A DNA stretch of 64,000 bases from the UHGV virus genome UHGV-1430452, one strand, 5' to 3'. Numbering within the stretch: position 1 is the stretch's first letter; the number at the start of each line of letters is the position of its first letter. Shown here in pieces: positions 4,531 through 58,312 of this stretch. The translations under genes were made by a program, and so were the position numbers. The notes under the pieces are model-generated. The model worked only from the letters and a program-made list of their open reading frames with translations, was not told where the DNA came from and ran no database searches. The stretch is from a virus.

Positions 4531-4733
4531 GAAAAATAGACTTTTCTCTCATAAAAGGGCAAGAAAATTTCGTGAATAGGGTGTGTACTTTTATATGTAA
4601 ATTTAGATAAGACCGGGAGCCATGAAGGACATCCCGGTACGTTCCAAAAATATAAATAGAAAGAAAATAGACCATCTCTCTATAAAAGGGTCAGAAATTT
4701 TCGTGAATAGGGTGTGTACTTTTTATATGTAAA
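4531..4733. repeat. two copies of a ~72-bp direct repeat (4531..4603 and 4663..4733), each containing a variant promoter-like motif (ctcataaaaggg...ttcgtgaata) and separated by a 7-bp-arm hairpin
   Basis: near-identical strings read directly; hairpin ACCGGGA-N13-TCCCGGT between copies. Confidence 0.8.
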
Positions 4734-5713: not shown

Positions 5714-5920
5714 ATAGCCGTTCTCTTCTAACCATTGACAATAATCATAAAATCATCCTTCTTTCTTATACTCTTTCCATTGCTCCAATGGACTCTTTTC
5801 TTCGAAATCATCAAACTCGTCGTACTCGTCATACATAAACGCATTCTCCTTTCTAAATTTGTTTTAATATAAGTTCGAAAACAAAAGAAGAGGTTGAAAA
5901 TATCAATCTCATCTTTCTTT

Positions 5921-5948
5921 CTATAATAGGGCGTGTAATTTTCGCGAG
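5921..5948 (-). promoter_or_regulatory. conserved promoter-like motif copy
   Basis: plus-strand ctataatagggcgtgtaattttcgcga; family consensus. Confidence 0.55.
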
Positions 5949-6022
5949 CCGACTTATCTTATATCAAGATTCGTAGACAAAAAGAAGAGGCCGGGAATCA
6001 ATCCCGAAACCTCCTCATTCTG

Positions 6023-35721: not shown

Positions 35722-35976
35722 TTACTTGCAATGAAATCCCATTACTACTTTTTCTTCAGATTCATTTTCCTTATTTTCTTCCGGTTCAACTTTGATTTTC
35801 GCTTTCTCGCATACCTCCTGTGCGATTTCGTTACCTTCTTTAGCAGCAAACTTCAATGTACCAAGGCCGATACCTGTAATAACTGCCTGAGCCATTTCCG
35901 CTGCAAACTTACCCATAGCAACTCCAAATGACACTGCAAATGCTGCTTTGCGTAAATCTTTAAATTGTCCATTCAT
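35722..35976 (-). CDS. small glycine-zipper membrane protein (84 aa)
   Basis: AFAVSFGVAMGKFAAEMAQAVITGIGLG; motif upstream. Confidence 0.65.
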   Translation of the reverse strand: MNGQFKDLRKAAFAVSFGVAMGKFAAEMAQAVITGIGLGTLKFAAKEGNEIAQEVCEKAKIKVEPEENKENESEEKVVMGFHCK

Positions 35977-44028: not shown

Positions 44029-44967
44029 TCAAATCATGTTGAGAATATCCCCATCCACATTGAAATCAAGAAGAATAGTTCTCTCATAACCGTTCACGAA
44101 GTTACGATTTGCCTCGTTGTAAGTGTTATAGATTCCGAAATCTACGAAATTATCACCTACTGGATGTTTCTCGTCATAAATCCATCCAACAATCTGACCT
44201 GCCTGTGTACGCGGGATTCCGAGCATATCATATACTTCATTCAGGAACAGATGACCTTTCGTTTTCAACATGTCATTTGCATAACGCTGCTGATCTTTAA
44301 GGAACATTAGATTGAATTCAGGATCTTTAGTCCATCCTGTACATCCATCATCGAAGAATTTAGCATAATCGCTGTAACTGTCGAGAGTTGCTACATTTGC
44401 TGTTTTCTTAACAGTAGTTTCTGTACCATCTTCATTTACAACAGTCTCTTCGATTTCTTTTGCTTTGATGTTGTACTTCAGTTCTTTATCAAGCTCTTCA
44501 CCAAATCTCTCAATAACACGACCACGATATTCCTTGAAGCCTTTGTCAATAGTTGCATAAGCGGCTGCAAGTGCTAAGTTACGTTTACGAAGAATATGAT
44601 GACCACTAAGAATAGCAGCGATAGAAACTGTTCCAAGGATTACTGCTGGAGCATAAAGTTTTGCTACCTTTACGGCTGTTTGAGTATACATGATAGTTAA
44701 ATCTTTCTTACCATCTTCTTCTGTGTACTCTTTACCTTCTGGAACCATATCTGGATTTTCCATAAATTCATGAATTTTCTCGATTTTTTCTTTTGGCTCA
44801 GCGAGCACCTCATCGAGTTTAGTAGTTGCTTTACATGCCATTACAGCAGAGCCAACTACACCAACAATACCTGCGCCAACCAAGATTTCAGGGCTATGCT
44901 TTTTAAATTTAAAACCTACACGATGGAGGCTTCTAGTTACTGTGTTCATAATTTCTAATTTTGCCAT
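44029..44967 (-). CDS. two-TM-anchored modular protein (312 aa), paralog family A (N-terminal domain shared with 47042 and 49330; C-terminal domain shared with 21525)
   Basis: N-terminal ...PEILVGAGIVGVVGSAVMACKAT... and C-terminal FFDDGCTGWTKDPEFNLMFLKDQQRY blocks. Confidence 0.75.
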   Translation of the reverse strand: MAKLEIMNTVTRSLHRVGFKFKKHSPEILVGAGIVGVVGSAVMACKATTKLDEVLAEPKEKIEKIHEFMENPDMVPEGKEYTEEDGKKDLTIMYTQTAVKVAKLYAPAVILGTVSIAAILSGHHILRKRNLALAAAYATIDKGFKEYRGRVIERFGEELDKELKYNIKAKEIEETVVNEDGTETTVKKTANVATLDSYSDYAKFFDDGCTGWTKDPEFNLMFLKDQQRYANDMLKTKGHLFLNEVYDMLGIPRTQAGQIVGWIYDEKHPVGDNFVDFGIYNTYNEANRNFVNGYERTILLDFNVDGDILNMI

Positions 44968-47041: not shown

Positions 47042-47869
47042 TTAATAGTAGCTATCGAAACCATATTCCGGAGGCATCAGATGATCAATAACAATACACG
47101 GTTCATTATCTTCCGTAATTTGAGCACTATATCTCACATCGATTTTGCCTTTATCGATTCTCCAACCGATGCTATTACCAACTTCGGTATGCTTAAGACC
47201 AATTTCGTCATAGAAATCATTCAGAGAAATATACATCTCGTTACCGTTGATCATTCTCTCATTAAGAGTAAGAACAGCATTTTTAATCTTGTCGATATCC
47301 GATCTGAAATATCTGTCGGAATGACTGTCATAACACAACGTGTTACCTTTACCTGTCATGATAATCTGAGTGTCTGCAACCGGATGTTCTTCAACTTGCT
47401 TCTTAGCGACTTTATCTCTGATGTTATTTTCCTTCTTCTCTCCGATAGTCTCTACCACTTTCTCTCTGTAGTCAGACAGTGCTGTTGTAGATAACTGATA
47501 TGCTGTTGCCAATGCTGCGTTACGTCTTACATGTACGGAATTAGCACCGATAAGACAAGCGACTGACGCAATGCCAGTGATAGCTGCTGGAATATAAGGT
47601 TTCCAAGCTGCTTTTACTGTTTCGACAGGTGTGAGATTTAAAGCGTTTCTTTCGTCTTCTTCTGTGAAAATACCGCCTTCATGAGCTTCTTTCTCTTTAA
47701 ACTTCTTCTCTTCCTCGATTAACTCCATAGCTTTTGGTGTTGCTTTTACTGCAAGCACAACAGTAGATATCATACCTGCGATACCAATGCCAGTAAGAAT
47801 TTCCGGACTGCGTTTTTTCATTACATATTTTGCAGTGTTTAAAAATTTTGTTACATTTGGTTTGTTCAT
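47042..47869 (-). CDS. two-TM-anchored modular protein, paralog family A (275 aa)
   Basis: N-terminal domain aligns with 44029 and 49330. Confidence 0.75.
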   Translation of the reverse strand: MNKPNVTKFLNTAKYVMKKRSPEILTGIGIAGMISTVVLAVKATPKAMELIEEEKKFKEKEAHEGGIFTEEDERNALNLTPVETVKAAWKPYIPAAITGIASVACLIGANSVHVRRNAALATAYQLSTTALSDYREKVVETIGEKKENNIRDKVAKKQVEEHPVADTQIIMTGKGNTLCYDSHSDRYFRSDIDKIKNAVLTLNERMINGNEMYISLNDFYDEIGLKHTEVGNSIGWRIDKGKIDVRYSAQITEDNEPCIVIDHLMPPEYGFDSYY

Positions 47870-47957: not shown

Positions 47958-48029
47958 AGAAACAGTGTAGGACTCGAACCCACAACCTACAGATATAAGT
48001 CTGTTGCTCTACCAATTGAGCTAACTGTT
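47958..48029 (-). tRNA. tRNA with atypical anticodon loop, probable anticodon TAT (Ile)
   Basis: acceptor AAACAGT/ACTGTTT, D-arm GCTC-AATTGGTA-GAGC, T-loop TTCGAGT; anticodon stem ACAG/CTGT with loop containing CTTATAT (6 or 8 nt by hand). Confidence 0.6.
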
Positions 48030-48034
48030 TCTTC

Positions 48035-48061
48035 TCATAATAGCGCTTGTAAATTTCGCGA
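48035..48061 (-). promoter_or_regulatory. conserved promoter-like motif copy directly upstream of the tRNA
   Basis: cataatagcgcttgtaaatttcgcgaa. Confidence 0.55.
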
Positions 48062-48106
48062 ATATAGATCTTCAGAAACAAAAAAGAAGAACCCCGAAGG
48101 ATTCTC

Positions 48107-48277
48107 CTAGACTTTCTTCTGAAGCTCAGAAACTGCTTTCTTCAACTCTTCAAACTCCTTTTCTTTTTTCTGATCTGATAATGCACCTGCTATAGCCATA
48201 ATACCTGTTACTACAACACCTGCATATTTTCCGACAGACTTCAGAAGCGGATTATTGATAATACCTTTGAATTTCAT
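48107..48277 (-). CDS. small glycine-zipper membrane protein (56 aa)
   Basis: missed by track; SD AAGGAGACGAG; KYAGVVVTGIMAIAGALS. Confidence 0.5.
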   Translation of the reverse strand: MKFKGIINNPLLKSVGKYAGVVVTGIMAIAGALSDQKKEKEFEELKKAVSELQKKV

Positions 48278-48301
48278 TTTTCTCGTCTCCTTTCTTCATT
48301 C

Positions 48302-48327
48302 CATTAAAGGAAATGTTTTTGTCGCGA
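48302..48327 (-). promoter_or_regulatory. conserved promoter-like motif copy
   Basis: cattaaaggaaatgtttttgtcgcga. Confidence 0.55.
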
Positions 48328-48364
48328 TACCGGTTTCGCTATATCAAAATATCATCGTTTATCG

Positions 48365-48853
48365 TCACCCGTGTATGGGTAAATCCATTTTGATTTTGTC
48401 AGGATTCATAATGAGGATACTATCGCAGTCCCAGCCATACAGATCCCAATATAACTGATGATCAGCTGATAAATTTAACTCGATGGCATCATAGCCAAGT
48501 TCAATGCATTTCTCGAAATCTATCAGTGTACTTATTGATTTCCATACCGGGTCAGCAATTGTTGGAAGTTCCTTTAATTTTTCTACGGAATCTATAACGA
48601 ATATATTGGCTTCCGGAAGAGTGAATATGAAACTATTTTCTTCAATACATTCACGAAAATTTTCTCTTTCACACCAGTCTTTCCAACCTAATTTGGCATC
48701 TATCGGACTAGCCCAAAGACCTCCTCTAGGTTTAACCCAGCATTGCTCATTTTGAATAGGTTTAAATAAGTTTGGATTAAAAGTTGCATGTCCGTAATGA
48801 ATATAAATCTTGTCTTGCATATTACTATCCTTTCGTTCAAAAACATATGTCAC
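48365..48853 (-). CDS. hypothetical protein (162 aa)
   Basis: co-directional ORF. Confidence 0.7.
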   Translation of the reverse strand: MTYVFERKDSNMQDKIYIHYGHATFNPNLFKPIQNEQCWVKPRGGLWASPIDAKLGWKDWCERENFRECIEENSFIFTLPEANIFVIDSVEKLKELPTIADPVWKSISTLIDFEKCIELGYDAIELNLSADHQLYWDLYGWDCDSILIMNPDKIKMDLPIHG

Positions 48854-48860
48854 TTAGTAA

Positions 48861-48893
48861 CAAAAAGAAAAGAGGCCCCTATTTCAGGACCTC
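48861..48893 (-). terminator. rho-independent terminator overlapping the stop of 48879..49082
   Basis: stem GAGGUCC/GGGCCUC then UUUUCUUUUUG. Confidence 0.6.
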
Positions 48894-49082
48894 AAATTTC
48901 TCTTTTTTATTTTTCTTGATTTTATTCTCAACGGATTCTTTCCATTGATTCGCTTTAGTTGCCACTGCCTGTCTGACTTCTGGAATAGCAAGTGCCGAAC
49001 CGACAACCGTTACTGCCGGCACAACAATCTGTCCAATCCAAAGTCTTACTTCTCTCATAGCATCAATATTTTTGCGTTTCAT
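48879..49082 (-). CDS. small membrane protein (67 aa)
   Basis: TM IVVPAVTVVGSALAI; own motif and terminator. Confidence 0.65.
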   Translation of the reverse strand: MKRKNIDAMREVRLWIGQIVVPAVTVVGSALAIPEVRQAVATKANQWKESVENKIKKNKKEKFEVLK

Positions 49083-49114
49083 AGTTTTATCCTCCTTTAA
49101 AAATATAATCTTTT

Positions 49115-49140
49115 CATTAAAGGCGTTGTTTATTTAGCGA
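49115..49140 (-). promoter_or_regulatory. conserved promoter-like motif copy
   Basis: cattaaaggcgttgtttatttagcga. Confidence 0.55.
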
Positions 49141-49349
49141 GTGTAATGGATATGCTCATTGTTTAATTCGTCGAGATGTTTAATAAAATCTAAATATCTT
49201 TTATTTCGTCTATTCTCCACAAAGTTTATAACTAACCAAGCAATCCCTACGATAGGCAAGCCAACGAATACTAATAGAAATAGTAAGCATGTAATCATAG
49301 AAACAAGCGTATTCATAAATCTTCTCCTTTCAATACTCTTCGTAATCAA
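49134..49349 (-). CDS. small membrane protein (71 aa)
   Basis: two hydrophobic segments; track start may overextend into the motif. Confidence 0.55.
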   Translation of the reverse strand: MITKSIERRRFMNTLVSMITCLLFLLVFVGLPIVGIAWLVINFVENRRNKRYLDFIKHLDELNNEHIHYTR

Positions 49350-50106
49350 TGAACGGCTCTGTGAAATCTACAATATAACATTCAATACCGTCGTCCATTT
49401 CTACTTTTGTATGGTGGAAATATAGCCAACCATCCCAGTACATTTCATACATCTGAGCTGCGGACCAACCCATAAATTCACCGTAATCCTGTCGATCAAT
49501 CTCTAGTAAATCGTAATAATCGTTTAAAGATGCACCACCGGATTGAGATAGCATTTTATTAATCTCATACTCTGCTCTCAATTGAGTTTCTTTCGTCACA
49601 CGGTAATAACGTTTGGAATATTCATCGTAGAATAGTGTTTTGCCATCCTCGTATTCGTCGTCATATTCTTCTTTGTCTTCTTCCTCGTAATGGTCTTTTG
49701 CTACAGCAGCACGAATGAGTTTGTCTCCGTCTTCACCATATAACTTTTTAACTTTGTTTTTGTACTCTTTGTGAGTTTGGTCTAGTAAGGCATAAGCAGA
49801 TGCGATGGCTGCTTGGGAATGTTTGTTTAATAGATTCGCGCCAAATATGCAAGCTAGGGTTCCTGTTCCAATCAATAAGGAAGGAATATATGTTGGTCCT
49901 GCTACTCGAATAGTCTCCCATTTTGTTAATTCATCTCCTTTCTCTTCTTCAGCTAGTTCAATAAGTTCCATTGCTTTCGGAGTAGCTTTAACCGCCATTA
50001 CAGCTGTACCTACCACTCCGGCAGCTCCTAATACTGTTAATATAGTAGAGCTGTTTTTCTTTACGAATCTTTTCGAAACTGTTAGTAAGTCATTCATTTC
50101 CAGCAC
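49330..50106 (-). CDS. two-TM-anchored modular protein, paralog family A (258 aa)
   Basis: N-terminal domain aligns with 44029 and 47042. Confidence 0.75.
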   Translation of the reverse strand: MLEMNDLLTVSKRFVKKNSSTILTVLGAAGVVGTAVMAVKATPKAMELIELAEEEKGDELTKWETIRVAGPTYIPSLLIGTGTLACIFGANLLNKHSQAAIASAYALLDQTHKEYKNKVKKLYGEDGDKLIRAAVAKDHYEEEDKEEYDDEYEDGKTLFYDEYSKRYYRVTKETQLRAEYEINKMLSQSGGASLNDYYDLLEIDRQDYGEFMGWSAAQMYEMYWDGWLYFHHTKVEMDDGIECYIVDFTEPFIDYEEY

Positions 50107-50218
50107 GCTCCTTGGCGATAAATTTGGTAAAAATAAAAAGAGAAAGAAAAGAGTCAGCTTGTTGTGTAAACCAAGTCTAACTCAATTCTTTTTGTCATTA
50201 TCCGAAATAACAATATCC

Positions 50219-50245
50219 CATAACAGGTGATGTAATTTTCGCGAA
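50219..50245 (-). promoter_or_regulatory. conserved promoter-like motif copy
   Basis: cataacaggtgatgtaattttcgcgaa. Confidence 0.55.
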
Positions 50246-50248
50246 TCC

Positions 50249-50479
50249 CTACTGCTCAAAAAATAAAACTACATCTACCGGATCTTTGAAGTGCTGCTCC
50301 TCCACTACTTCTTTAAATTCTTCAAATGATTCCGGTTCGTATTCTTGTAAATATAAAATCTGTTCAAGCAATCTTCCGTAAAATCCTTGAGAATTAGATA
50401 GCATTTTTACCACACCAATGACTTGTTCAACATCATAACCGTCTGCTTTCTTTTCCATAGCGTTTGCCATTTTGAACAC
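50249..50479 (-). CDS. hypothetical acidic protein (76 aa)
   Basis: SD AAAGGAG; preceded by long structured leader. Confidence 0.65.
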   Translation of the reverse strand: MFKMANAMEKKADGYDVEQVIGVVKMLSNSQGFYGRLLEQILYLQEYEPESFEEFKEVVEEQHFKDPVDVVLFFEQ

Positions 50480-50648
50480 TCCTTTAATTGGTTTTTGATA
50501 AAAATAAAAAGAGAATACAATGACTTCAGGGTCGGCCCAACGAAAACCGTTGCCCGGTGGGTAGCATGTTTTATTACGTTATTACGTGCCGCTACGCCTT
50601 CGTGTCTCACCACTGGATTTCCACCAGTATCTATCCATTGCTTTCTCT
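50480..50648 (-). ncRNA. candidate structured 5' leader / cis-regulatory RNA (~165 nt, GC-rich) between promoter motif and start of 50249..50479
   Basis: hairpins ACTGG-N7-CCAGT and CAACG-N5-CGTTG, followed by U-rich tract just upstream of the SD. Confidence 0.35.
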
Positions 50649-50675
50649 CATAATAGGTGATGTAATTTTCGCGAA
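50649..50675 (-). promoter_or_regulatory. conserved promoter-like motif copy (consensus match)
   Basis: cataataggtgatgtaattttcgcgaa. Confidence 0.55.
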
Positions 50676-50702
50676 TAGAAAAAGAAAATGCCTAGTTTTT
50701 AA

Positions 50703-50966
50703 CTAGACAAATTCTTTAATAATTATTGTTCCACCAACTACATCGATTTTTATTTTATTCATCGCTTTCAACATACTAGCCACTTTTTGCACTGGTAACT
50801 TACTTGTGAAACCATAGAACACCAAGTCGCCCATGGTATATACATGCCCTACTGAATACTTAACTTCAATATCGGCTGTATATTTGCCAAGGCAATCCAT
50901 TGCTCCTAAATTTTTCACAACTTCGTTTTTATTCGCGCATAAAGTAATTTCATATTTAGTAAACAT
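50703..50966 (-). CDS. hypothetical protein (87 aa)
   Basis: SD AAGGAGGA; motif upstream. Confidence 0.65.
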   Translation of the reverse strand: MFTKYEITLCANKNEVVKNLGAMDCLGKYTADIEVKYSVGHVYTMGDLVFYGFTSKLPVQKVASMLKAMNKIKIDVVGGTIIIKEFV

Positions 50967-51001
50967 ATAAATTCCTCCTTATTCGATTTCATTGTTTTTC
51001 T

Positions 51002-51028
51002 CATAATAGGTGATGTAATTTTCGCGAA
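51002..51028 (-). promoter_or_regulatory. conserved promoter-like motif copy
   Basis: cataataggtgatgtaattttcgcgaa, identical to 50649 copy. Confidence 0.55.
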
Positions 51029-51050
51029 AACAAAAGAGAAAGGGCCCATG

Positions 51051-51191
51051 TTACTGAGCCACTTTCGCTTTCTTATGATTTTTAACTGCTTTCTTAGAAA
51101 CCTCTACTGCTTTATTCACTGCATCACTTGCCAAACTACCGACTACCAATCCGCCAGCAATCTCAATAATGTGTCTAACTAAAACATTCAT
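51051..51191 (-). CDS. small glycine-zipper membrane protein (46 aa)
   Basis: missed by track; SD AGGAGGAA; IIEIAGGLVVGSLAS. Confidence 0.5.
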   Translation of the reverse strand: MNVLVRHIIEIAGGLVVGSLASDAVNKAVEVSKKAVKNHKKAKVAQ

Positions 51192-51227
51192 TTTAGATTC
51201 CTCCTGTTAAGCAATTTATTATCTTTC

Positions 51228-51254
51228 CATAATAGGACTTGTAATTTTCGCGAA
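51228..51254 (-). promoter_or_regulatory. conserved promoter-like motif copy
   Basis: cataataggacttgtaattttcgcgaa. Confidence 0.55.
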
Positions 51255-51256
51255 TT

Positions 51257-51285
51257 AAAAGAAAAGACACCGTGTTTCAGGTGCC
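51257..51285 (-). terminator. rho-independent terminator directly followed by promoter motif
   Basis: stem GGCACC/GGUGUC (G-U) then UUUUCUUUU. Confidence 0.6.
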
Positions 51286-51512
51286 TAATCCTCTGAATCA
51301 ACCATTTGTTCAATTTTCAGTAATACTTTCTGATCAATTTCTCCATCCGCATTGATATGAAATCGTATTTTACCATCCTTCATCTCAGCTTCTATCTCAC
51401 TAATACGGATGTCTGGTTTGACTCCAATATTTTTGTATATAGCTCTAGATATAAGTTTGGCTACCATACCTCTCATAAATCTAGTAGATAATTTAATTTT
51501 CATTTCGTCCAT
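51285..51512 (-). CDS. hypothetical protein (75 aa)
   Basis: co-directional ORF. Confidence 0.65.
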   Translation of the reverse strand: MDEMKIKLSTRFMRGMVAKLISRAIYKNIGVKPDIRISEIEAEMKDGKIRFHINADGEIDQKVLLKIEQMVDSED

Positions 51513-51539
51513 AATTACCTCCTCCTTCTAGGTTGTTTC

Positions 51540-51567
51540 CTATAATAGGGGAAGTTTAAGTCGCGAA
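51540..51567 (-). promoter_or_regulatory. conserved promoter-like motif copy
   Basis: ctataataggggaagtttaagtcgcgaa. Confidence 0.55.
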
Positions 51568-51598
51568 AACAAAAGAAAGAGCAGTGGGTGACACCGCT

Positions 51599-51706
51599 CT
51601 AACTGTTTCTCAAAAATCGAATGAGAATCCATACAAGCCATAATCCTCCGGTTGCAAATACTAATACAAAGTCGATAAGCAATCCGAATAATCCACGCTT
51701 TTTCAT
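51599..51706 (-). CDS. small membrane peptide (35 aa)
   Basis: missed by track; SD AAAGGAGAAG; terminator hairpin overlaps its 3' end. Confidence 0.45.
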   Translation of the reverse strand: MKKRGLFGLLIDFVLVFATGGLWLVWILIRFLRNS

Positions 51707-51733
51707 GATTATCTTCTCCTTTCATTTTCTTTT

Positions 51734-51758
51734 CACAATAGGAGAAGTTTTTATCGCG
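51734..51758 (-). promoter_or_regulatory. conserved promoter-like motif copy
   Basis: cacaataggagaagtttttatcgcg. Confidence 0.5.
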
Positions 51759-51809
51759 TGCATTATCAGTTCCTTCAAATACAAAATAAAAGAGACCAAT
51801 CGGCCTCTC

Positions 51810-51959
51810 TTACATGTTTCGTTTAGAAAGTTCTTCTGCTACCTTCTTTGCAATCTTTTCATCCAATAACTTATCTGTACTTTGTTTCCCTGCGAATGTT
51901 AATCCCGCACTAACAATAGCTGTTATAAGCTTTGCAATTCTAATTACTTTTGGTGACAT
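51810..51959 (-). CDS. small glycine-zipper membrane protein (49 aa)
   Basis: missed by track; SD AAGGAGGT; KLITAIVSAGLTFAG. Confidence 0.5.
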   Translation of the reverse strand: MSPKVIRIAKLITAIVSAGLTFAGKQSTDKLLDEKIAKKVAEELSKRNM

Positions 51960-51974
51960 AAATATACCTCCTTT

Positions 51975-52000
51975 CTATAATAGAAGAGGTTTAAATCGCG
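51975..52000 (-). promoter_or_regulatory. conserved promoter-like motif copy
   Basis: ctataatagaagaggtttaaatcgcg. Confidence 0.5.
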
Positions 52001-52350
52001 CGTCTATCGAAGCAAGTTTCCCATCGTTCTCGCTTAACTGGCTTCATTTTCATAGTCCACATCATTTGTCGGACCGTTACGGTGGGATATAAACCGTTCT
52101 CAGGTTCTCCCGATCTATCCTCGAAGAACTCCAGGAATCTTTCATGTAAATATAAAGTGTCTGTCAGCCACGGATCAATCTCGCCCCACCAGGTATTTTT
52201 CGTCGCTGGATCATATCGCTGCTGAATAACAGCTAGTCCTTTTCGTCCCATTTTGAATAAAGTACATTTACTGTAAACTGGATGATCACATTCATAAGTT
52301 TCTCCGTACATCGATACATAAACTTTTGGCTTTTCGTAGTGATAACGCAT
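51991..52350 (-). CDS. hypothetical protein (119 aa)
   Basis: co-directional ORF. Confidence 0.65.
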   Translation of the reverse strand: MRYHYEKPKVYVSMYGETYECDHPVYSKCTLFKMGRKGLAVIQQRYDPATKNTWWGEIDPWLTDTLYLHERFLEFFEDRSGEPENGLYPTVTVRQMMWTMKMKPVKRERWETCFDRRAI

Positions 52351-52445
52351 ATTACTATTATCCTTTCTTTAACTTTAGTTATATAACTTTTGTTTAAACT
52401 CTCGCGTTAGGAAATATAAAAGAAGAAAAAAAAAGAAAAGACTAT

Positions 52446-52525
52446 GGGAATAGCGCGGGATTCGAACCCACGACGTTGAGTTTCCTCTTATTCTTCCATT
52501 AGAACTAACCGTCTTAACTATTCCA
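52446..52525 (-). other. tRNA-like element: canonical acceptor stem and T-arm (GGGTTCGAATCCC) but no resolvable anticodon arm; pseudo-tRNA or tRNA-derived structured RNA
   Basis: acceptor GGAATAG/CTATTCC and T-loop TTCGAAT found; every 5-bp/7-nt anticodon-arm register checked by hand fails; promoter motif directly upstream. Confidence 0.4.
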
Positions 52526-52572
52526 GAGACTTCTTCCGATATATTGCTATACGGGAATTGTTCTCTTCTTTT

Positions 52573-52600
52573 CTATAATAGGAAATGTTTATTTAGCGAA
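52573..52600 (-). promoter_or_regulatory. conserved promoter-like motif copy upstream of the tRNA-like element
   Basis: ctataataggaaatgtttatttagcgaa. Confidence 0.55.
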
Positions 52601-52643
52601 AGAAAATAGCCCAGGCGTTTAACCCGAGCTAATTCTCTTAAAC

Positions 52644-53012
52644 TTATTCGTTACCATTGAGTTTCTCAATAGCTTCAACCTTCCTGCTGTCAAACATCGT
52701 AGAATTTACAATACTCATCACAGCTTTGTAATATGTTTTCGGCTGATCCTTCTTGAGCAACTCTATCGCCTGAACTTTACGACTATCAAACATGCTGCTG
52801 TTCATTATCGAAGCTACCGCACTGTCATAATCTGCTGTGCTAAATATATCCGCTAATAAATCAACTTCATATGTGTCCTGTTTTCGTTTCTTTTCACGCA
52901 ATACAACTGCCACAATTGGAATCGCAATACCAATCCCATTTGCTACATATTCTGTGATTTTCCATAAACTCTCTTTTGTTTTCTCGCTAGTTAAAACTTC
53001 TTTGATTTTCAT
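52644..53012 (-). CDS. membrane-anchored protein with internal sequence repeat (122 aa)
   Basis: duplicated block MNSSMFDSRKVQAIELL / VNSTMFDSRKVEAIEKL. Confidence 0.65.
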   Translation of the reverse strand: MKIKEVLTSEKTKESLWKITEYVANGIGIAIPIVAVVLREKKRKQDTYEVDLLADIFSTADYDSAVASIMNSSMFDSRKVQAIELLKKDQPKTYYKAVMSIVNSTMFDSRKVEAIEKLNGNE

Positions 53013-53039
53013 ATCAATAACCTCCTATAAGTTTATTCT

Positions 53040-53066
53040 CATAACAGGCGTTGTAATAATAGCGAA
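53040..53066 (-). promoter_or_regulatory. conserved promoter-like motif copy
   Basis: cataacaggcgttgtaataatagcgaa. Confidence 0.5.
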
Positions 53067-53112
53067 AAAGAAGAGCCTAAGTCATTTCGACTCAAGCCCT
53101 TCCATTTTGAAA

Positions 53113-53496
53113 TTACTTTTTTGGGAGTAACTTCTGAATGAATCCTCGACCCATTATTGTTGTGATGGTTCCAGTCTCTTCGAATTTGATAGACTTGATT
53201 GTGCCCCAGATAGTAACCGCTGTCGGTATAACAATACCCGCTCCTGTTAAGCAATTCTTAACAACTCGATCTTTTCGTTCATCTTTAAGCTGCTCTGCTC
53301 TTAATTCAGCATCAACATTTTGCTGATCCTTTTTAAGTTCTTGTTCAGCCTTAATTTTCTCAAGTTCGATTGCTCGATCACATAACTTTGTCAGGCCGTC
53401 TACCGTATTTTTGTACTTATCTGTACCTACTTCAAGTTTTCCTAACTCTTCGAATTCGTCCTGAATCTCATCTTTTAATAATGTTTCAATACTCAT
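53113..53496 (-). CDS. coiled-coil membrane protein (~127 aa); start at SD-supported second ATG
   Basis: SD AAGGAGGAG before ATG at 53496; C-terminal TM. Confidence 0.65.
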   Translation of the reverse strand: MSIETLLKDEIQDEFEELGKLEVGTDKYKNTVDGLTKLCDRAIELEKIKAEQELKKDQQNVDAELRAEQLKDERKDRVVKNCLTGAGIVIPTAVTIWGTIKSIKFEETGTITTIMGRGFIQKLLPKK

Positions 53497-53523
53497 TTTG
53501 AACTCCTCCTTATATTCGTATTT

Positions 53524-53549
53524 CATAATAGGGAATGTTATTTTTGCGA
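53524..53549 (-). promoter_or_regulatory. conserved promoter-like motif copy
   Basis: cataatagggaatgttatttttgcga. Confidence 0.5.
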
Positions 53550-53747
53550 CAGATCTACTCTAAGCATTACGTGTTTATCTTTTCGTAGCTTATATGCCTT
53601 ACCACTATCTATTTCTAAAAATAAATACGGTGCTGAGTCTGGATCTGAGCTGTCTACTTTCAGTGTGCCGATTGGCTTTTTTACTAAGAGTGTCGTTGCC
53701 ACAACTGCACCTATCAGCATACCTACTAATAAAAATAAAAGTTCCAC
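53538..53747 (-). CDS. small membrane protein (~70 aa); probable GTG start after SD AAGGAGGAAG
   Basis: track start lacks SD and overlaps motif; TM LLFLLVGMLIGAVVATTLLV. Confidence 0.5.
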   Translation of the reverse strand: MELLFLLVGMLIGAVVATTLLVKKPIGTLKVDSSDPDSAPYLFLEIDSGKAYKLRKDKHVMLRVDLSQK

Positions 53748-53861
53748 TACGCTACTTCCTCCTTTCTTCAATAGAATTGTTTTATCGAAAACTCCCTCCC
53801 GGGAAATTTTCACTTTAGAATTTTAATATTGTTTCCTGTCACCTATGTACGGAATATCTAT

Positions 53862-53890
53862 TCTAGATTAGAGTTTGTTTTAATCTAGGT
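53862..53890. promoter_or_regulatory. 8-bp-arm palindrome CTAGATTA-N10-TAATCTAG; operator-like
   Basis: perfect inverted repeat read directly. Confidence 0.45.
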
Positions 53891-53891
53891 T

Positions 53892-53918
53892 AAAGAAAAA
53901 AGAGAGCCTAAGCCCTCT
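53892..53918 (-). terminator. rho-independent terminator
   Basis: stem GAGGGC/GCUCUC loop UUAG then U6. Confidence 0.55.
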
Positions 53919-54144
53919 TATCTGTCATAAAACTTGGTAACTGAAGTTCTGGTTTATAAGTCATTAACTCTGCTTCATATAGCCTCATGATAATAGCTAT
54001 CTCATCTTCATGAATACTTTTTATCAACTTAAAGACTTTATCATAATCAACATCTGATTTATTCTTCATTTGACAAATATAATCCACGAGTCTGGTATAC
54101 TTATCATCCGCAGTTCCTATCATTGCCGCAAATTTAACTTCCAT
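53908..54144 (-). CDS. hypothetical protein (78 aa)
   Basis: co-directional ORF. Confidence 0.65.
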   Translation of the reverse strand: MEVKFAAMIGTADDKYTRLVDYICQMKNKSDVDYDKVFKLIKSIHEDEIAIIMRLYEAELMTYKPELQLPSFMTDKRA

Positions 54145-54178
54145 AATTTATCCTCCTTAAATTTAAAGTTTTATGTTT

Positions 54179-54206
54179 CTATAAAGTAGTATGTATTTTT
54201 GGCGAA
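54179..54206 (-). promoter_or_regulatory. conserved promoter-like motif copy
   Basis: ctataaagtagtatgtatttttggcgaa. Confidence 0.5.
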
Positions 54207-54225
54207 AAAGAAAAGAAGAGACCGA

Positions 54226-54426
54226 TTAGGCCTCCTCTTTAAATAACTCAGGGTATTTCTCCATCAGTTCTTTTCTGTCTCGTTCAATGTCTTTTTCTAT
54301 ATGCTCGATTTCTGCTTCCAATTTACCTGTGCTTTTACCTAAACGGTAACCCAGATAAGATCCTACAGCATAAACCAATCCGGCATATAAACCAAAACCT
54401 AAACCAGCTTTTAAATTAGCTTTCAT
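54226..54426 (-). CDS. small glycine-zipper membrane protein, YtxH-like (66 aa)
   Basis: GLGFGLYAGLVYAVGSYLGYRLG then coiled coil. Confidence 0.65.
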   Translation of the reverse strand: MKANLKAGLGFGLYAGLVYAVGSYLGYRLGKSTGKLEAEIEHIEKDIERDRKELMEKYPELFKEEA

Positions 54427-54452
54427 GATAGATCACTCCTATAATTTATTCT

Positions 54453-54478
54453 CATAATAGGCGTTGTTTTAGTCGCGA
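54453..54478 (-). promoter_or_regulatory. conserved promoter-like motif copy
   Basis: cataataggcgttgttttagtcgcga. Confidence 0.55.
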
Positions 54479-54657
54479 TCATCAAACGGTACTTCTATGT
54501 TTTCAATCTCGTCAGAAATAATCTCCCCGTCACCGATAAGTAGTTCTCTTTTGTTTATTTGATTAACGCTAGTTCGATATATACCCTCAGCTACTGCTAG
54601 TCCGATAAATGTACTTACTCCCCAAAGAATTCCTTTGATTAATTTATTAGTATCCAT
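54469..54657 (-). CDS. small membrane protein (~62 aa); start trimmed to internal ATG
   Basis: SD-like GAGGAAAA before ATG at 54657; TM ILWGVSTFIGLAVAEGIY. Confidence 0.5.
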   Translation of the reverse strand: MDTNKLIKGILWGVSTFIGLAVAEGIYRTSVNQINKRELLIGDGEIISDEIENIEVPFDDRD

Positions 54658-54737
54658 TTTGAATTTTCCTCTCATGATATATTCTCTATTGGAAATCAAA
54701 AGGAAGAGTATCTGCATAGATACCCGCCTTTTTGTTT

Positions 54738-54953
54738 TTAATTATTGCTTGTGGTCCAACCCATGTTGTTCTGTGTGAATGAGTTGTTAATGCCGTTGAT
54801 AGTTCTTACTCTATCCTCGTACAATGAATTGTCGCTAATGATGCTAACTCCGAATTTCCATTTGAAGTCTGGAATTTCGTTAGCTGCTTTCATAGCTTCA
54901 TCCCATTTCTCAAGGAAGACTTCTATCGCATATCCTCTCTCTACACTATCCAT
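54738..54953 (-). CDS. hypothetical protein (71 aa)
   Basis: co-directional ORF; motif upstream. Confidence 0.6.
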   Translation of the reverse strand: MDSVERGYAIEVFLEKWDEAMKAANEIPDFKWKFGVSIISDNSLYEDRVRTINGINNSFTQNNMGWTTSNN

Positions 54954-54980
54954 GTCGTTACCCTCCTTTATAATAATTTT

Positions 54981-55008
54981 CTATAAAGGAGCGTGTAATT
55001 TTCGCGAA
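54981..55008 (-). promoter_or_regulatory. conserved promoter-like motif copy
   Basis: ctataaaggagcgtgtaattttcgcgaa. Confidence 0.55.
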
Positions 55009-55056
55009 TATCTAATCCCGTGCATTAATCAACTTCAGATTCTCACTTCGTTCTAA

Positions 55057-55476
55057 TCAATCCCTAGCATTCGATAGCAGCCAAAAGAACCTTCTGTACC
55101 TGTCGTAATACATGTCTCTACCGCACGGAATATCTAACTTTGACCGCAGGTAAGTATACGATAAACCCTCTGTAACCGCTTTTAAAATGTAATCGTACAA
55201 ATAACGGTCTGCATCCAAAGCTATCCTCTCGATTAGATCGATTTTCTCTTTATAATAAGCTCTCAAGATTGCTCTCTTACCTGTTGGATCACCAGGCATA
55301 TTGCTCGTTGGGATTTTCTCGATCATGGATAACGGTACAGAATGATCGTTAAAAGCAGCATAAGCACTCTTCCATATCGGATACTGTAAACAAAAATGTT
55401 TTAGTTCGTAATATCGATGTTTGCTAATCCAGTATTTGTTGTTCTCAGACAGCTCTGGACGTATTCTTGTTGCCAT
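55057..55476 (-). CDS. hypothetical protein (139 aa)
   Basis: SD GAAGGAGAAAAA. Confidence 0.7.
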   Translation of the reverse strand: MATRIRPELSENNKYWISKHRYYELKHFCLQYPIWKSAYAAFNDHSVPLSMIEKIPTSNMPGDPTGKRAILRAYYKEKIDLIERIALDADRYLYDYILKAVTEGLSYTYLRSKLDIPCGRDMYYDRYRRFFWLLSNARD

Positions 55477-55617: not shown

Positions 55618-55836
55618 CTATTTACTCCGTGATAAGAATATGTCCAATGCTTCTAGGTTAGTTAATCCAAGAACCTCTTTTAACTTAGCCGCTTCATTTA
55701 CCGTAAATGCATCAAATCCATTTAGCTTACGATAAAAAGAAGATCTGTTGATGTCGATCAGATCAGCGGTCTTAGCCACGTTCAATCCCTTTTCGACTAT
55801 CTTGCCTTTTAATTTATTCGCATTCATGCACATCAC
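55618..55836 (-). CDS. Cro/XRE-type HTH regulator (72 aa), divergent from plus-strand regulator
   Basis: HTH VAKTADLIDINRSSFYRKLNG. Confidence 0.7.
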   Translation of the reverse strand: MMCMNANKLKGKIVEKGLNVAKTADLIDINRSSFYRKLNGFDAFTVNEAAKLKEVLGLTNLEALDIFLSRSK

Positions 55837-56052
55837 CTCTCGCTGTATTTGTCGCTTATCTGCAACAACACGAGAATATCACCAGCTTACTTTTTCTGTC
55901 AATAACTTTTTCGCATAAAACGAAAACGATTTATTCTAGAATACAATTTATTTGCATATATGCGATTTTGTGTGTATCATATGGATTGATAAGAGAAGAA
56001 TAAGAAAGAGTCCTAAGACTCATCTTCGCGATAGTATAAAGGAGTTAACCGA
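55837..56052. promoter_or_regulatory. divergent-promoter/operator region of the lysogeny switch; contains palindromes GCATATATGC, ATTCTAGAAT and GAGTC-CTAA-GACTC
   Basis: intergenic between divergently oriented HTH genes; palindromes read directly. Confidence 0.55.
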
Positions 56053-56649
56053 ATGACAATAGGACAAAAAATAAAAGAATTACGCAATCAACTTAATATG
56101 TCGGTGGATGATCTTGCTGTGAAACTGGGTAAGAACCGTGCGACTATCTACCGCTATGAACGAGGAGATATCGAGAACCTCCCTCTCGATGTACTAGAAC
56201 CATTAGCAAATGCTCTTGAGACCACACCTGGTTATTTAATGGGATGGGAAGAAACTACGAAAAAGAAAGAGCCTTCAATTATCGATGAAGTTACCATGGG
56301 TGACGTTTTTAAAGCGTTACGTCTAGGAAGTAATTTATCGATAGAGGAATTTTCGCATGAGATTGGATTATCTGCCCAAGACATAAGCAATTATGAAGCA
56401 GGAAAGACTCCTATACCTGTAAATATAATTAATCTTGTTGCTGATTTCTTTGGCATATCAATAGCGGAAATAGTTAAGGCACACAAAAACAGCGAAAATA
56501 GAACGCCTTCTGGTTTCGAAATGAAAAAGGAACGATTTGAACGTTTTAAAGTTTGGAATAAAGAGTTTGGACGAATACATTTTACTGATGAAGAAATCAA
56601 TAAAATAATGGAATATACAAGGTTCTTACTTAGCCAAAGAAGACAGTAA
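56053..56649 (+). CDS. XRE-family transcriptional regulator with two HTH domains (198 aa), CI-like
   Basis: HTHs LNMSVDDLAVKLGKNRATIYRYERG and LSIEEFSHEIGLSAQDISNYEAG; SD AAAGGAG. Confidence 0.8.
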   Translation: MTIGQKIKELRNQLNMSVDDLAVKLGKNRATIYRYERGDIENLPLDVLEPLANALETTPGYLMGWEETTKKKEPSIIDEVTMGDVFKALRLGSNLSIEEFSHEIGLSAQDISNYEAGKTPIPVNIINLVADFFGISIAEIVKAHKNSENRTPSGFEMKKERFERFKVWNKEFGRIHFTDEEINKIMEYTRFLLSQRRQ

Positions 56650-56734
56650 GTCTACATAGGTTTACTCTATTTAAAGGAGGTGATGCCTGAATTCAGTTCA
56701 TCGTAGAATTTACATCAAAGGAAAGGTGGAACCA

Positions 56735-58312
56735 ATGACAACGTTTGATATGAACAACGCTGTAGACAATGCGTTCGGTATGGACGTATATGCTATCTAT
56801 CTTCGGAAAAGTCGAGCCGATGTAGAAGCAGAAAAACTTGGAGAAGGAGAAACACTAGCAAGGCATAGAAAGATACTAACAGAACTTGCTGCTAGAAAAG
56901 GATTGTATATCGGTAAGATTTACGAGGAAATTGTATCTGGTGAAACAATCGAAGCTAGACCTGAAATACAAAAACTGATAGAAGATTGTTATAAAGGGAA
57001 ATATAGAGGAATCCTAATAGTAGAAGTTACTCGTCTATCTCGTGGTAATCAAGGAGACGCTCAAAAAATACTCGACTGTCTCAAATATTCGAATAGAAAC
57101 AATGGTGTATTAGTTATCACTCCTACTAAGACTTATGACGTTGCACACAGCCAAGAAGACGAAGAATATATGGAGTTTGAATTGTTTATGTCTCGTCGAG
57201 AATATAAGATGATTCAAAAGCGTATGGATCGTGGCCGTAAACAAGCAGTCGTAGAAGGAAACTTCATGGGTAGTTACCGTCCCTATGGATATGACATCTT
57301 AAAAACCAAGACCGGACGAACACTTATACCGAATGAAGATGAAGCTCCTATCGTGAAAATGATTTACGAATGGACAGTTAACGATAATTTATCTCCTTTC
57401 AAGATAGCTGAGCGTTTAACTAATATGGGTGTTCCTACTTATTATGGTGAGAAGGATTGGTCTAAAGAAACAGTTAAAACCATTTTGACGAATCAGACAT
57501 ACATGGGTAAAGTTCGTTGGAATGATCGAATGACTGTTAAGACTATGGTCGACGGAGAACTTAAAGCTACACGACCTCGTTCAAATCATTCCGATCACTT
57601 CATGCTATATGATGGAAAACATATGAAACACGCACTCGTCGACGAAGAAACATTCAAAGCAGCCTCCTCTCGCTTTCATAACGATAGGACAAGATCAAAT
57701 CTAAAACTTGTTAATCCTCTTGCAGGACTTCTATTTTGTAAGAAATGTGGTAAATCTATGGGTTATCAATCATATAGACATAAGAAAAACGGACCAATGG
57801 ATCGATACAATCATAGACAGTCTGCTAATGGATGCAAGGTTAAGTCAGCAGTTGCTGAGGATGTTATAAAAGCTGTTATACATGCTTTGAAACTTTATAT
57901 AGAAGATTTCGAATTTAAGTTAGACAACACTCCAGATGTTGACGAAAATTCAATCAATACGCAGCTCGAAGCTTTACAAAAAGAAATACGAAAATCCGAA
58001 CGAAAACTTGCTAAGCTATTCGATTCTTGGGAAGATGAGAAGATAACAGATAATGAATTTGTTCAAAGGAAAGCCGTCCATAATCAGAAGATAGAAAATA
58101 TAAAGAGGCAAATGGAAGAACTCGAATATTCGATACCAGAAAGAGAAGAATATGAGGATAAAATAATATTGCTGTCTGAAGCACTTGTCGCTATCACAGA
58201 CGAATCGCTTGACGCAGATATTAAGAACGAGTATCTTAAAAGAATCATTGATAGAATAGAGTTTAGTAGAGAGAATAACTCAGAGTTTATACTAGATATA
58301 GACTTATGCTAA
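56735..58312 (+). CDS. large serine recombinase (phage integrase)
   Basis: N-terminal YAIYLRKSRAD catalytic-Ser motif, zinc ribbon CKKCGKS...C, C-terminal coiled coil; start moved to ATG with SD AAAGGTGGA. Confidence 0.85.
   Translation: MTTFDMNNAVDNAFGMDVYAIYLRKSRADVEAEKLGEGETLARHRKILTELAARKGLYIGKIYEEIVSGETIEARPEIQKLIEDCYKGKYRGILIVEVTRLSRGNQGDAQKILDCLKYSNRNNGVLVITPTKTYDVAHSQEDEEYMEFELFMSRREYKMIQKRMDRGRKQAVVEGNFMGSYRPYGYDILKTKTGRTLIPNEDEAPIVKMIYEWTVNDNLSPFKIAERLTNMGVPTYYGEKDWSKETVKTILTNQTYMGKVRWNDRMTVKTMVDGELKATRPRSNHSDHFMLYDGKHMKHALVDEETFKAASSRFHNDRTRSNLKLVNPLAGLLFCKKCGKSMGYQSYRHKKNGPMDRYNHRQSANGCKVKSAVAEDVIKAVIHALKLYIEDFEFKLDNTPDVDENSINTQLEALQKEIRKSERKLAKLFDSWEDEKITDNEFVQRKAVHNQKIENIKRQMEELEYSIPEREEYEDKIILLSEALVAITDESLDADIKNEYLKRIIDRIEFSRENNSEFILDIDLC

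Follow-up and report, generated by a model that had tools for sequence, protein, structure and literature searches.

An array of small-gene cassettes headed by a candidate phage-polymerase promoter in a temperate virus of the gut

We analysed a stretch of 64,000 nucleotides from the virus genome UHGV-1430452 (hereafter the window) and, within it, the region 47,958-55,012, where 19 small protein genes (median 71 amino acids, aa) and two tRNA-like genes follow one another, largely in units headed by copies of one 30 bp motif. The minus strand carries all genes from 47 to 56 kb. The window is a temperate element: a serine integrase gene (56,726-58,312) and a cI-like repressor gene (56,053-56,649), both on the plus strand, face a Cro-like gene (55,618-55,836) across a promoter of sigma-A type whose TTGACA hexamer lies at 55,902. 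The cro operon runs in the order cro, a 57-aa gene and a 139-aa gene (55,057-55,476), directly after which the cassette region starts. Near the region, the lytic strand has no host-type promoter besides that of this operon (its -10-like hexamer being either GATATT at 16 nt or TATTCT, preceded by TG, at 18 nt).

Read on the minus strand, the repeated motif has the consensus TCGCGA-N5-(A/T)ACA-N5-TATTATG followed by purines. A position weight matrix (PWM) built from its copies and run over the window gave 31 matches, all of them on the minus strand, and shuffled sequences gave none. Fifteen of the 31 sites fall within 48,027-55,012, which is 11% of the window, and one more, weak copy is found at 54,171-54,210; in all, the region has 16 motif-headed units and 12-13 terminators of the hairpin/T-run type. 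The motif is always intergenic and strictly co-directional with the genes, and in most units its G is followed by a start codon after 25-37 nt, so that leader lengths are uniform. Between 46 and 57 kb we counted 21 terminator-like hairpin/T-run sites against 5.9 expected from shuffles, and a stricter scan of the whole window gave 29 on the minus strand against 5 on the plus strand, 12 of these in the region. For seven of the region's terminators the scan placed a motif copy 7-26 nt downstream, and by position at least three others adjoin a copy. In three or four units the motif drives an RNA, either in place of a protein or ahead of it; the units concerned are those of the two tRNA-like genes (47,958-48,031 and about 52,440-52,525) and of the long leaders at 50,480-50,640 and 50,110-50,210.

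The initial annotation of this DNA, made from the sequence before any search, had described a cassette-like array of autonomous single-gene units, and the motif and terminator scans bear this out, down to its example of a terminator running into the next promoter, where a hairpin with its T-run (51,265-51,286) is followed by the conserved part of a motif copy (51,228-51,253). It had counted about 20 units, each gene having a promoter of its own; a private motif is present for 16, the figure of 20 is too high, and the genes beginning at 54,657, 53,747, 52,350, 49,316 and 48,820 have no copy that the PWM detects. The features are collected in Table 1.

Table 1. Features of the cassette region, in the order of the minus strand, with other features discussed in the text (motif, open reading frame (ORF) and terminator positions are those of the window)
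Feature	Position	Strand	Remarks
YonO/'RdRP-like' two-barrel RNA polymerase, 1,056 aa, N- and C-terminal helix-turn-helix	305..3475	-	outside the region; proposed reader of the motif
Sigma-A-type promoter of the cro operon	55873..55902	-	TTGACA and -10-like hexamer
139-aa protein, phrog_11237, last gene of the cro operon	55057..55476	-	first motif copy follows; a possible transcription factor and competing candidate for reading the motif
Unit 1: motif 54973-55012, ORF 54738-54953 (71 aa), terminator 54706-54725	54706..55012	-	
62-aa membrane protein gene	54469..54657	-	no PWM-detectable motif
Unit 2: motif 54444-54483, ORF 54226-54426 (66 aa, GxxxG zipper), terminator 54212-54240	54212..54483	-	
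Unit 3: weak motif 54171-54210, ORF 53908-54144 (78 aa), terminator 53900-53919	53900..54210	-	
69-aa membrane protein, scaffold gene, phrog_15309	53538..53747	-	no own motif; in 38/41 loci
Unit 4: motif 53515-53554, ORF 53113-53496 (127 aa), terminator 53069-53103	53069..53554	-	scaffold gene, phrog_15866, in 40/41 loci
Unit 5: motif 53031-53070, ORF 52644-53012 (122 aa), terminator 52607-52631	52607..53070	-	product with N-terminal membrane segment and internal repeat
Unit 6: motif 52565-52604 driving tRNA-like RNA (about 52440-52525), then T-run	52440..52604	-	
119-aa scaffold gene, phrog_17256	51991..52350	-	no PWM-detectable motif; in 35/41 loci
Unit 7: motif 51967-52006, ORF 51810-51959 (49 aa, scaffold), terminator 51786-51813	51786..52006	-	
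Unit 8: motif 51725-51764, ORF 51599-51706 (35-aa membrane peptide), terminator 51578-51600	51578..51764	-	
Unit 9: motif 51532-51571, ORF 51285-51512 (75 aa, scaffold, phrog_18243), terminator 51265-51286	51265..51571	-	
Unit 10: motif 51219-51258, ORF 51051-51191 (46 aa), terminator 51043-51060	51043..51258	-	
Unit 11: motif 50993-51032, ORF 50703-50966 (87 aa), terminator 50689-50709	50689..51032	-	
Unit 12: motif 50640-50679, leader or non-coding RNA of about 160 nt (50480-50640), ORF 50249-50470 (73 aa)	50249..50679	-	
Unit 13: motif 50210-50249, 120-nt leader, DUF6353 gene 49330-50097 (255 aa)	49134..50249	-	second gene: 60-aa membrane protein, 49134-49316; the Pfam search used the 258-aa GTG-start ORF 49330-50106
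Unit 14: motif 49106-49145, ORF 48879-49082 (67-aa membrane protein), terminator 48872-48893	48872..49145	-	
151-aa gene	48365..48820	-	no own motif
Unit 15: motif 48293-48332, ORF 48107-48277 (56-aa membrane protein), terminator 48085-48108	48085..48332	-	
Unit 16: motif 48027-48066 abutting tRNA-like gene (47958-48031)	47958..48066	-	

The tRNA-like genes set a bound on the place where transcription starts. Directly upstream of 50 of the 53 tRNA or tRNA-like genes found there is a copy of the motif, and the mature 5' end of these RNAs falls at index 31-36 of the motif 40-mer, most commonly 2 nt past the G of TTATG. This close abutment, the gene starting 1-6 nt after TTATG, is seen in the window, where the 5' end of the gene at 47,958-48,031 lies 5 nt past the G, and at more than 25 distinct related loci; in Faecalibacterium phage FP_oengus the 5' end of the tRNA lies 1-2 nt past the G, at index 31 as called by ARAGORN or at index 32 if the cloverleaf is read directly. 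Since the 5' ends are 1-6 nt past TTATG, transcription must start at or just after that G, and this means that TATTAT occupies about -6 to -1, not -12 to -7. The predicted placement matches that of phage-polymerase promoters.

As far as its sequence can tell, the motif is not a sigma-70 promoter, its spacing and the bound on the start site being incompatible with the sigma-70 geometry. Sigma-A and sigma-70 promoters have hexamers 16-18 nt apart and a start 5-8 nt after the -10 hexamer, and the motif shows neither feature: only 13-14 nt separate TCGCGA from TATTAT, and only 5 nt separate TTACA from it. Sites of sigma-70 type occur in the region at chance (35 found against 35.0 expected). A hairpin promoter of the N4 type was considered and rejected, as the hairpins stand at variable distances from the motif, have T-runs after stop codons and are absent at half of the sites; so was a sigma-54-type geometry with boxes at about -24 and -12, as the sequences do not match GG/GC. 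A search of the literature for an earlier description of promoters with this motif found none, though the reports on ReqiPepy6 or on Lactococcus phages could hold one.

The element encodes an RNA polymerase of its own. The product of the gene at 305-3475 matches phrog_4291 from end to end (1,140 bits), with the catalytic loop GADFDGD at residues 578-584 (DFDGD at 580-584) and a helix-turn-helix (HTH) of the sigma-region-4 type at the C-terminus, residues 1016-1054. Full-length homologs are present in 250 phage records, from phages of Arthrobacter, Gordonia, Streptomyces, Rhodococcus and Lactococcus and from FP_oengus, and are annotated there as 'RNA-dependent RNA polymerase' (RdRP) or as HTH protein. 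A supergroup of actinophages, Lactococcus phages and FP_oengus has already been defined with the HTH-bearing YonO/RdRP-like protein as its signature, in a preprint that also reports an HHpred match of 95.7% to the RdRP family PF05183 and a DxDGD motif (bioRxiv 10.1101/842583); that study makes no mention of promoters. A BLAST search with the window polymerase did not find YonO of SPbeta, which is too distant, and no sequence in the PDB matched. When a profile of the polymerase was compared with the PDB, residues 925-972 or thereabouts gave a non-significant match (E 0.16-0.28) to the RpoN box of sigma-54 (2o8k, 2ahq), beside which we note, as a lead only, that the CGCG box of the motif stands at about -24 from the inferred start. 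A homolog 79% identical to the polymerase (P0167), found on 572 contigs, bears the NCBI name 'ArsR family transcriptional regulator [Blautia sp. TM10-2]', and many of the actinophage homologs are called merely 'helix-turn-helix DNA-binding protein'; this looks like a systematic mis-annotation of the polymerase.

The architecture of the motif recurs in five lineages, the window and four others, which span two host phyla and 36-61% GC content, and all five encode the polymerase, with 37-43% identity in the four others. The motif reads GACGCGAAAAATACAGCCTCCTTTATGGAA in FP_oengus (49% GC), TTTTACATACCCTATAATGAGA in the virulent Lactococcus phage P092, where there are at least 10 near-identical copies, CTCGCAAGTTTTACAGCCTCTATAGTGAGACC in Streptomyces phage Scap1 (61% GC) and GTCGCGAAAATTACACGCCCTATAATAGAAGA in Arthrobacter phage Mudcat, the last being nearly identical to the window site at 5952; the upstream box is present in Scap1 and Mudcat too. 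In the window, replication genes and the polymerase operon are headed by the same motif as the cassettes. In FP_oengus, in Mudcat and in the window, the endonuclease/exonuclease/polymerase operon has the last of the motif copies in front of it, and no copy was found in the structural module of FP_oengus or P092. The 139-aa protein, by comparison, was detected in only two of the five lineages, the window and FP_oengus: tblastn found no homolog in P092, Scap1 or Mudcat (its matches were in four phage records only), and a profile hidden Markov model (HMM) of 108 sequences found none in Scap1 or in P092, of which the first 50 kb of 53.5 kb were searched, the remainder being the polymerase gene and a small ORF; the absence from Mudcat is as given by tblastn. 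Since motif and polymerase occur together in five lineages and the 139-aa protein in two, the polymerase is the likely reader. We consider it probable, from these comparisons of sequence, that the motif is the promoter of the phage two-barrel polymerase. As for the established promoters of phage polymerases, the polymerase is encoded by the element itself, and motif and polymerase co-occur across divergent genomes independently of the host. The contig MT835485, which we considered as a case of the motif without the polymerase, is uninformative, as it stops 1-2 kb short of the expected position of the polymerase gene.

Some observations were made upstream of the polymerase operon. In the window, two variant motifs stand in tandem on the minus strand (4544-4592 and 4675-4723), 131 bp apart, upstream of a tRNA-Met gene and the exonuclease/polymerase operon; in these TCACGA replaces TCGCGA, the ACA is lacking, and both share an extra conserved upstream extension. 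The tandem at 4544-4723 may be a distinct promoter subclass for switching the polymerase on. A repeat-rich non-coding stretch lies upstream of the polymerase operon in P092 (L085, 48412-48771, repeats CCCGGATTTT), in Scap1 (L087, 38061-38364, TTGACA/TTGTCAAA) and in Mudcat (L168, 40165-40602, GTGGCCAA), and could be an origin, or a control region read by the host which launches synthesis of the polymerase.

We collected relatives of the element through the 139-aa protein. Its family (phrog_11237) counts 7,912 homologs in the protein collection, with relatives in 332 IMG/VR contigs of roughly 60-90 kb and in chromosomal prophages of Hungatella hathewayi, Enterocloster lavalensis, [Ruminococcus] torques ATCC 27756, Roseburia, Blautia, Oscillibacter and others; among annotated phages only FP_oengus and two faecal scaffolds have it. 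FP_oengus shares the gene order of the window: integrase, a small gene and the 139-aa homolog, about 12 tiny genes, three DUF6353 genes, and then a large DNA polymerase, an exonuclease, the 'RNA-dependent RNA polymerase' and the structural genes. Eighty related viral contigs have no motif match on the opposite strand, and 80 chromosomal prophage copies have 343 matches against none on the opposite strand, with a density of 0.82 per kb downstream of the 139-aa gene and 0.09 per kb upstream. The region is best explained as a hyperplastic module of early genes in a temperate siphovirus that infects gut Clostridia and is related to FP_oengus.

Turnover of the cassettes was followed with a simple ORF caller, which reproduced the manual gene list of the window and was then run, in 75 loci, on the 8 kb that follow the 139-aa homolog; dereplication left 41 loci. 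These 41 loci contain 214 protein families, 158 of which (74%) occur in one locus only, and 12 of 20 window genes belong to families present in at most 5 loci. Interspersed with them, about 8 families, which we call the scaffold, are found in at least half of the loci in a conserved order; in the window they comprise the genes beginning at 53,747, 53,496, 52,350, 51,959 and 51,512 and the DUF6353 gene. The closest contig found, L004, in which the 139-aa protein is 99% identical, illustrates the changes: Unit 1 is wholly missing, in Unit 3 the ORF alone is replaced, exactly between the promoter with its ribosome-binding site and the terminator, and an extra cassette encoding 81 aa is flanked by a duplication of a terminator and motif start (window 53,062-53,093). 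Over all relatives, 56% of the homology end-points fall at unit boundaries, against 31% expected. Cassettes are thus gained, lost and replaced among relatives, as the initial annotation had supposed, both the single-locus families and the junctions at unit boundaries agreeing with it; its view of the region as purely accessory does not fit the co-linear scaffold that runs through it, several families of which are kept even in FP_oengus.

Such a layout had been thought unusual for phages, but the same one has been published for T4-type phages, whose hyperplastic regions are built of composites named PeSL (Arbiol et al. 2010, PMC2839356; Comeau et al. 2014, PMC4122927). There as here, small ORFs without known function stand singly between composites of a terminator stem-loop and an early promoter, hypervariable clusters lie between conserved genes, and the junctions of insertions, deletions and swaps fall within the composites. 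What differs is the promoter half, which in T4-type phages is an early promoter for host sigma-70 and here is a motif of about 30 bp that is not of sigma-70 type, as well as the bearer, here a temperate siphovirus of Clostridia in which only about half of the motif copies have the terminator half.

This promoter half is itself comparable with known systems. The class II/III promoters of T7, T3 and SP6 are specific to the phage polymerase. Like the motif, they are longer than 20 bp, strand-specific, conserved up to the start and common to many genes, with TATA-like bases just upstream of a purine-rich start and with terminators of the hairpin/U-run type. The polymerase of the window differs from theirs in being unrelated to the single-subunit type (it has DFDGD and a fused HTH, and would have two barrels) and in being encoded outside the early operon transcribed by the host, and the candidate promoters are denser, one per 200-450 bp. 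Nearer to it is YonO of SPbeta, likewise from a temperate phage of Firmicutes: it too is a single chain related to multisubunit polymerases and RdRPs, and the structural genes follow right after its gene. A single start has been mapped for YonO, from which it transcribes one late operon, and its promoter is explicitly said to be unknown (PMC5467207). The window protein belongs to the HTH-bearing 'RdRP-like' family (bioRxiv 10.1101/842583). In contrast to YonO, it would serve more than 30 candidate promoters per genome, heading early and middle genes. Single small genes between a promoter and a terminator of their own are also a feature of lambdoid morons, which are scattered and expressed from the prophage by the host polymerase, and of the host-takeover module of SPO1, where about 24 small early genes are clustered among numerous promoters and terminators, the promoters being strong ones for sigma-A. 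Here, unlike in both, the promoter class is shared with the genes of lytic replication and does not resemble sigma-A promoters. An expression of the cassettes in the prophage, moron-like, is doubtful, as the same motif heads lytic genes.

The proteins encoded by the cassettes, about 20 in number, gave no match in Pfam, NCBIfam or PADLOC, and in PHROGs matched only families of unknown function. Judged by a hydrophobicity threshold, a membrane segment is present in 8 of the region's 19 products (42%), with 3-4 others close to the limit; the rest of the window has 21 such products among 101 (21%), which makes the enrichment about two-fold. In the corresponding regions of the relatives the figure is 46%. 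About half of the products, then, would be membrane proteins, and not most of them as had been thought at the outset. Nor are there at least six glycine zippers: the only clear one is encoded at 54,226-54,426 (5 GxxxG), the other ORFs named having 0-1, although those cited from outside the region, at 35,722 and 43,180, do exist (84 and 37 aa). Three paralogs of DUF6353, each with an N-terminal membrane segment, were observed on the minus strand at 44029-44967, 47042-47869 and 49330-50106; DUF6353 is present in several copies in almost all relatives and in FP_oengus.

These elements can be assembled as follows. The host polymerase would transcribe the switch operon (the cro, 57-aa and 139-aa genes) directly upstream of the cassettes. 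Each of the 16 autonomous units would then start at a phage-specific promoter, at the G or 1-2 nt past it, and have a leader of 25-37 nt with a strong ribosome-binding site, most units ending in a hairpin/T-run that abuts the next promoter. The reader would be the two-barrel polymerase with its fused HTH, in place of a reading of the sigma-70 type, so that repression of one polymerase gene could silence more than 30 promoters in the lysogen. The terminator/promoter composites would double as homology arms for insertion, loss and swap of cassettes, and the outcome would be about 8 conserved scaffold genes set among small genes of high variability. About half of these small genes code for membrane proteins, and the products of the small genes presumably act on the host early in the lytic cycle. 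Early roles directed at the host, such as takeover, exclusion or anti-defence, are plausible for these products.

Taken with all its parts, the reading that we slightly favour over its negation is that the motif provides a promoter consensus, the first one, for the HTH-fused YonO/RdRP-like polymerases, that these would recognise it self-sufficiently and transcribe from it nearly the whole lytic programme, that they would stop at hairpin/oligo-T sites, and that the terminator/promoter composites would also be arms for recombination, by which the set of early genes stays in flux. By the same narrow preference, the box at about -24 would be read by the HTH and TATWATG would lie at the start, leaderless tRNA-like RNAs being included among the transcripts, and the consensus would be conserved nearly base for base from phages of Arthrobacter and Streptomyces to those of Lactococcus and to the abundant prophages of gut Clostridia.

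Several facts weigh against the polymerase as reader. Promoter activity and the start sites at the motif are both things that we infer. Hairpin/U-tract terminators are classic signals for bacterial RNA polymerase, and termination at them by the phage polymerase is a supposition of ours; moreover a T-run stands just upstream of only about half of the motif copies, window-wide. The polymerase gene lies 50 kb downstream, itself behind motif copies (4541-4580 and 5913-5952), and no convincing sigma-A promoter was found near it, which leaves the origin of the first polymerase molecules unexplained. The AlphaFold2 model of the polymerase is poor (predicted local distance difference test 55.5, predicted template modelling score 0.34, from a shallow alignment of 74-92% identity), the junction statistics are modest (27 of 63 clusters, p=0.027), and the one characterised relative, YonO of SPbeta, transcribes a single late operon (PMC5467207). 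The 139-aa protein, finally, stands in about 160 loci exactly where promoters of host type give way to those of the motif type, has weak fold matches to the Q21 antiterminator and to sigma4, and may contribute to the reading of the motif. Carried further, this would make the host RNA polymerase the reader, with the 139-aa protein redirecting it in the role of a small sigma-like factor, of an activator of a -30 box like MotA, or of an antiterminator like Q that carries the host enzyme past the terminators; the phage polymerase would act only on the late structural operon, as YonO, which transcribes late genes only, does in SPbeta. The position of the 139-aa gene at the end of the sigma-A-driven cro operon, the first motif lying within 0-220 nt of it in nearly all loci, suits such a scheme, as do the intrinsic terminators. 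So does the spacing of 13 nt between TCGCGA and TATTAT, which resembles that between the MotA box and the -10 element of T4. We regard it as unlikely all the same: in P092, Scap1 and Mudcat the motif, in the last two with its upstream box, occurs with the polymerase but with no 139-aa homolog detectable by tblastn or, in P092 and Scap1, by the profile HMM, the hosts cover two phyla and 36-61% GC, and the starts of the tRNA-like genes leave no space for a discriminator of 5-8 nt after TATTAT.

That last point also bears on the simpler idea of an ordinary strong host sigma-A promoter, spread by duplication, which would make of the region a run of morons. TATTAT and TATAAT do resemble a -10 hexamer, TTACA resembles part of a -35 hexamer, and units bracketed by their own promoter and terminator are moron-like; yet TTACA is 5 nt and TCGCGA, which is unlike TTGACA, 13-14 nt from TATTAT, the scan with the sigma-70 consensus stayed at chance level, the genuine sigma-A promoter at cro has a different look, the motif is kept between phages of Actinobacteria and of Firmicutes, and its presence at replication genes and at the polymerase operon indicates a lytic programme and not morons expressed by the prophage. 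We hold this explanation to be most improbable, and nearly as improbable is one in which the motif is no promoter at all but a recombination site, a site of RNA processing or antitermination, or a repressor operator. The upstream box TCGCGA is indeed a palindrome (TTCGCGAA), and the cassette junctions coincide with the terminator/promoter composites; but the motif is intergenic and co-directional with the genes, is placed 25-37 nt before start codons and directly downstream of terminators, where re-initiation is needed, and abuts the 5' ends of tRNA-like genes, and in its asymmetry over 30 bp and its purine-rich 3' end it is like known phage-polymerase promoters. A different question is what the cassettes are for. 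They could be a diversifying arsenal acting on membranes, for superinfection exclusion or modulation of lysis, which is compatible with the best explanation given above for the region. The excess of membrane-segment genes in the region and in the relatives, the extreme turnover, with 74% of families in a single locus, and the early position speak for it; against it, soluble proteins make up half of the products, several units yield an RNA, the best-conserved genes of the region do not vary at all, and no homology to characterised exclusion, holin/antiholin or defence proteins was found; we take it as a tentative proposal with the odds against it.

If the polymerase is the reader of the motif, several questions on its family become testable, as the candidate promoter crosses phyla, is present in dozens of copies per genome and occurs in culturable systems, namely P092, Mudcat, Scap1, FP_oengus and the prophages of Hungatella hathewayi DSM 13479 and [Ruminococcus] torques ATCC 27756. 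It could yield a compact orthogonal pair of polymerase and promoter for Gram-positive and gut bacteria. A PeSL-like layout and the polymerase supergroup were already known; new are the cassettes in a temperate siphovirus of Clostridia and the promoter class, the promoter half appearing to be the so far undescribed promoter of the widespread minimal two-barrel phage polymerases. The PeSL idea of modular gene shuffling driven by regulatory composites thereby reaches beyond the T4-type myoviruses and takes in a family of prophages that is very common in the gut, and the proposed arrangement would explain how such prophages maintain a large and fast-changing set of small early genes.

The RNAs headed by the motif have features of their own. 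The tRNA-like gene at 47958-48031 is canonical in its acceptor stem, D arm and T arm and non-canonical in its anticodon loop, which has 6 nt, CTTATA; with gathering and E-value thresholds, Rfam recognised only this tRNA. Its orthologs in L004-L084 have hypervariable anticodon loops, mostly without U33: about 30 loci have GATTAAA, which ARAGORN calls suppressor-TTA, and others GATCAAA (TCA), AGTTAT, TGGAAT or TTGATT. In P092 two such units with different loops stand in tandem and are not called by ARAGORN. These RNAs could be unusual suppressors, or decoys against anticodon nucleases. The RNA at 52440-52525 (minus strand) is predicted to form an acceptor-like stem of 8 bp and a T arm, GGGTTCGAATCCC, while D and anticodon arms of normal form are missing; a long T-run comes after it. 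ARAGORN, with introns allowed or with relaxed settings, did not call it, Rfam gave no match, and it was found elsewhere only in L004. The structured leader or non-coding RNA of about 160 nt at 50480-50640 (minus strand), ahead of the 73-aa gene, has no Rfam match either. A copy 87% identical to it lies upstream of the 139-aa homolog in L080 (130-280), so that the element seems to move as a unit.

Elsewhere in the window, motif copies head genes at 37.3, 36.0, 34.0, 27.8, 22.0, 21.5 and 21.0 kb, and further ones at 17.5, 10.6, 10.1, 9.9, 7.1, 6.5 and 6.0 kb. The 56-kb lytic arm on the minus strand is as a whole unusually rich in small genes: about 130 genes were called, their median length outside the region is 93 aa, and no more than 31 ORFs reach 150 aa.

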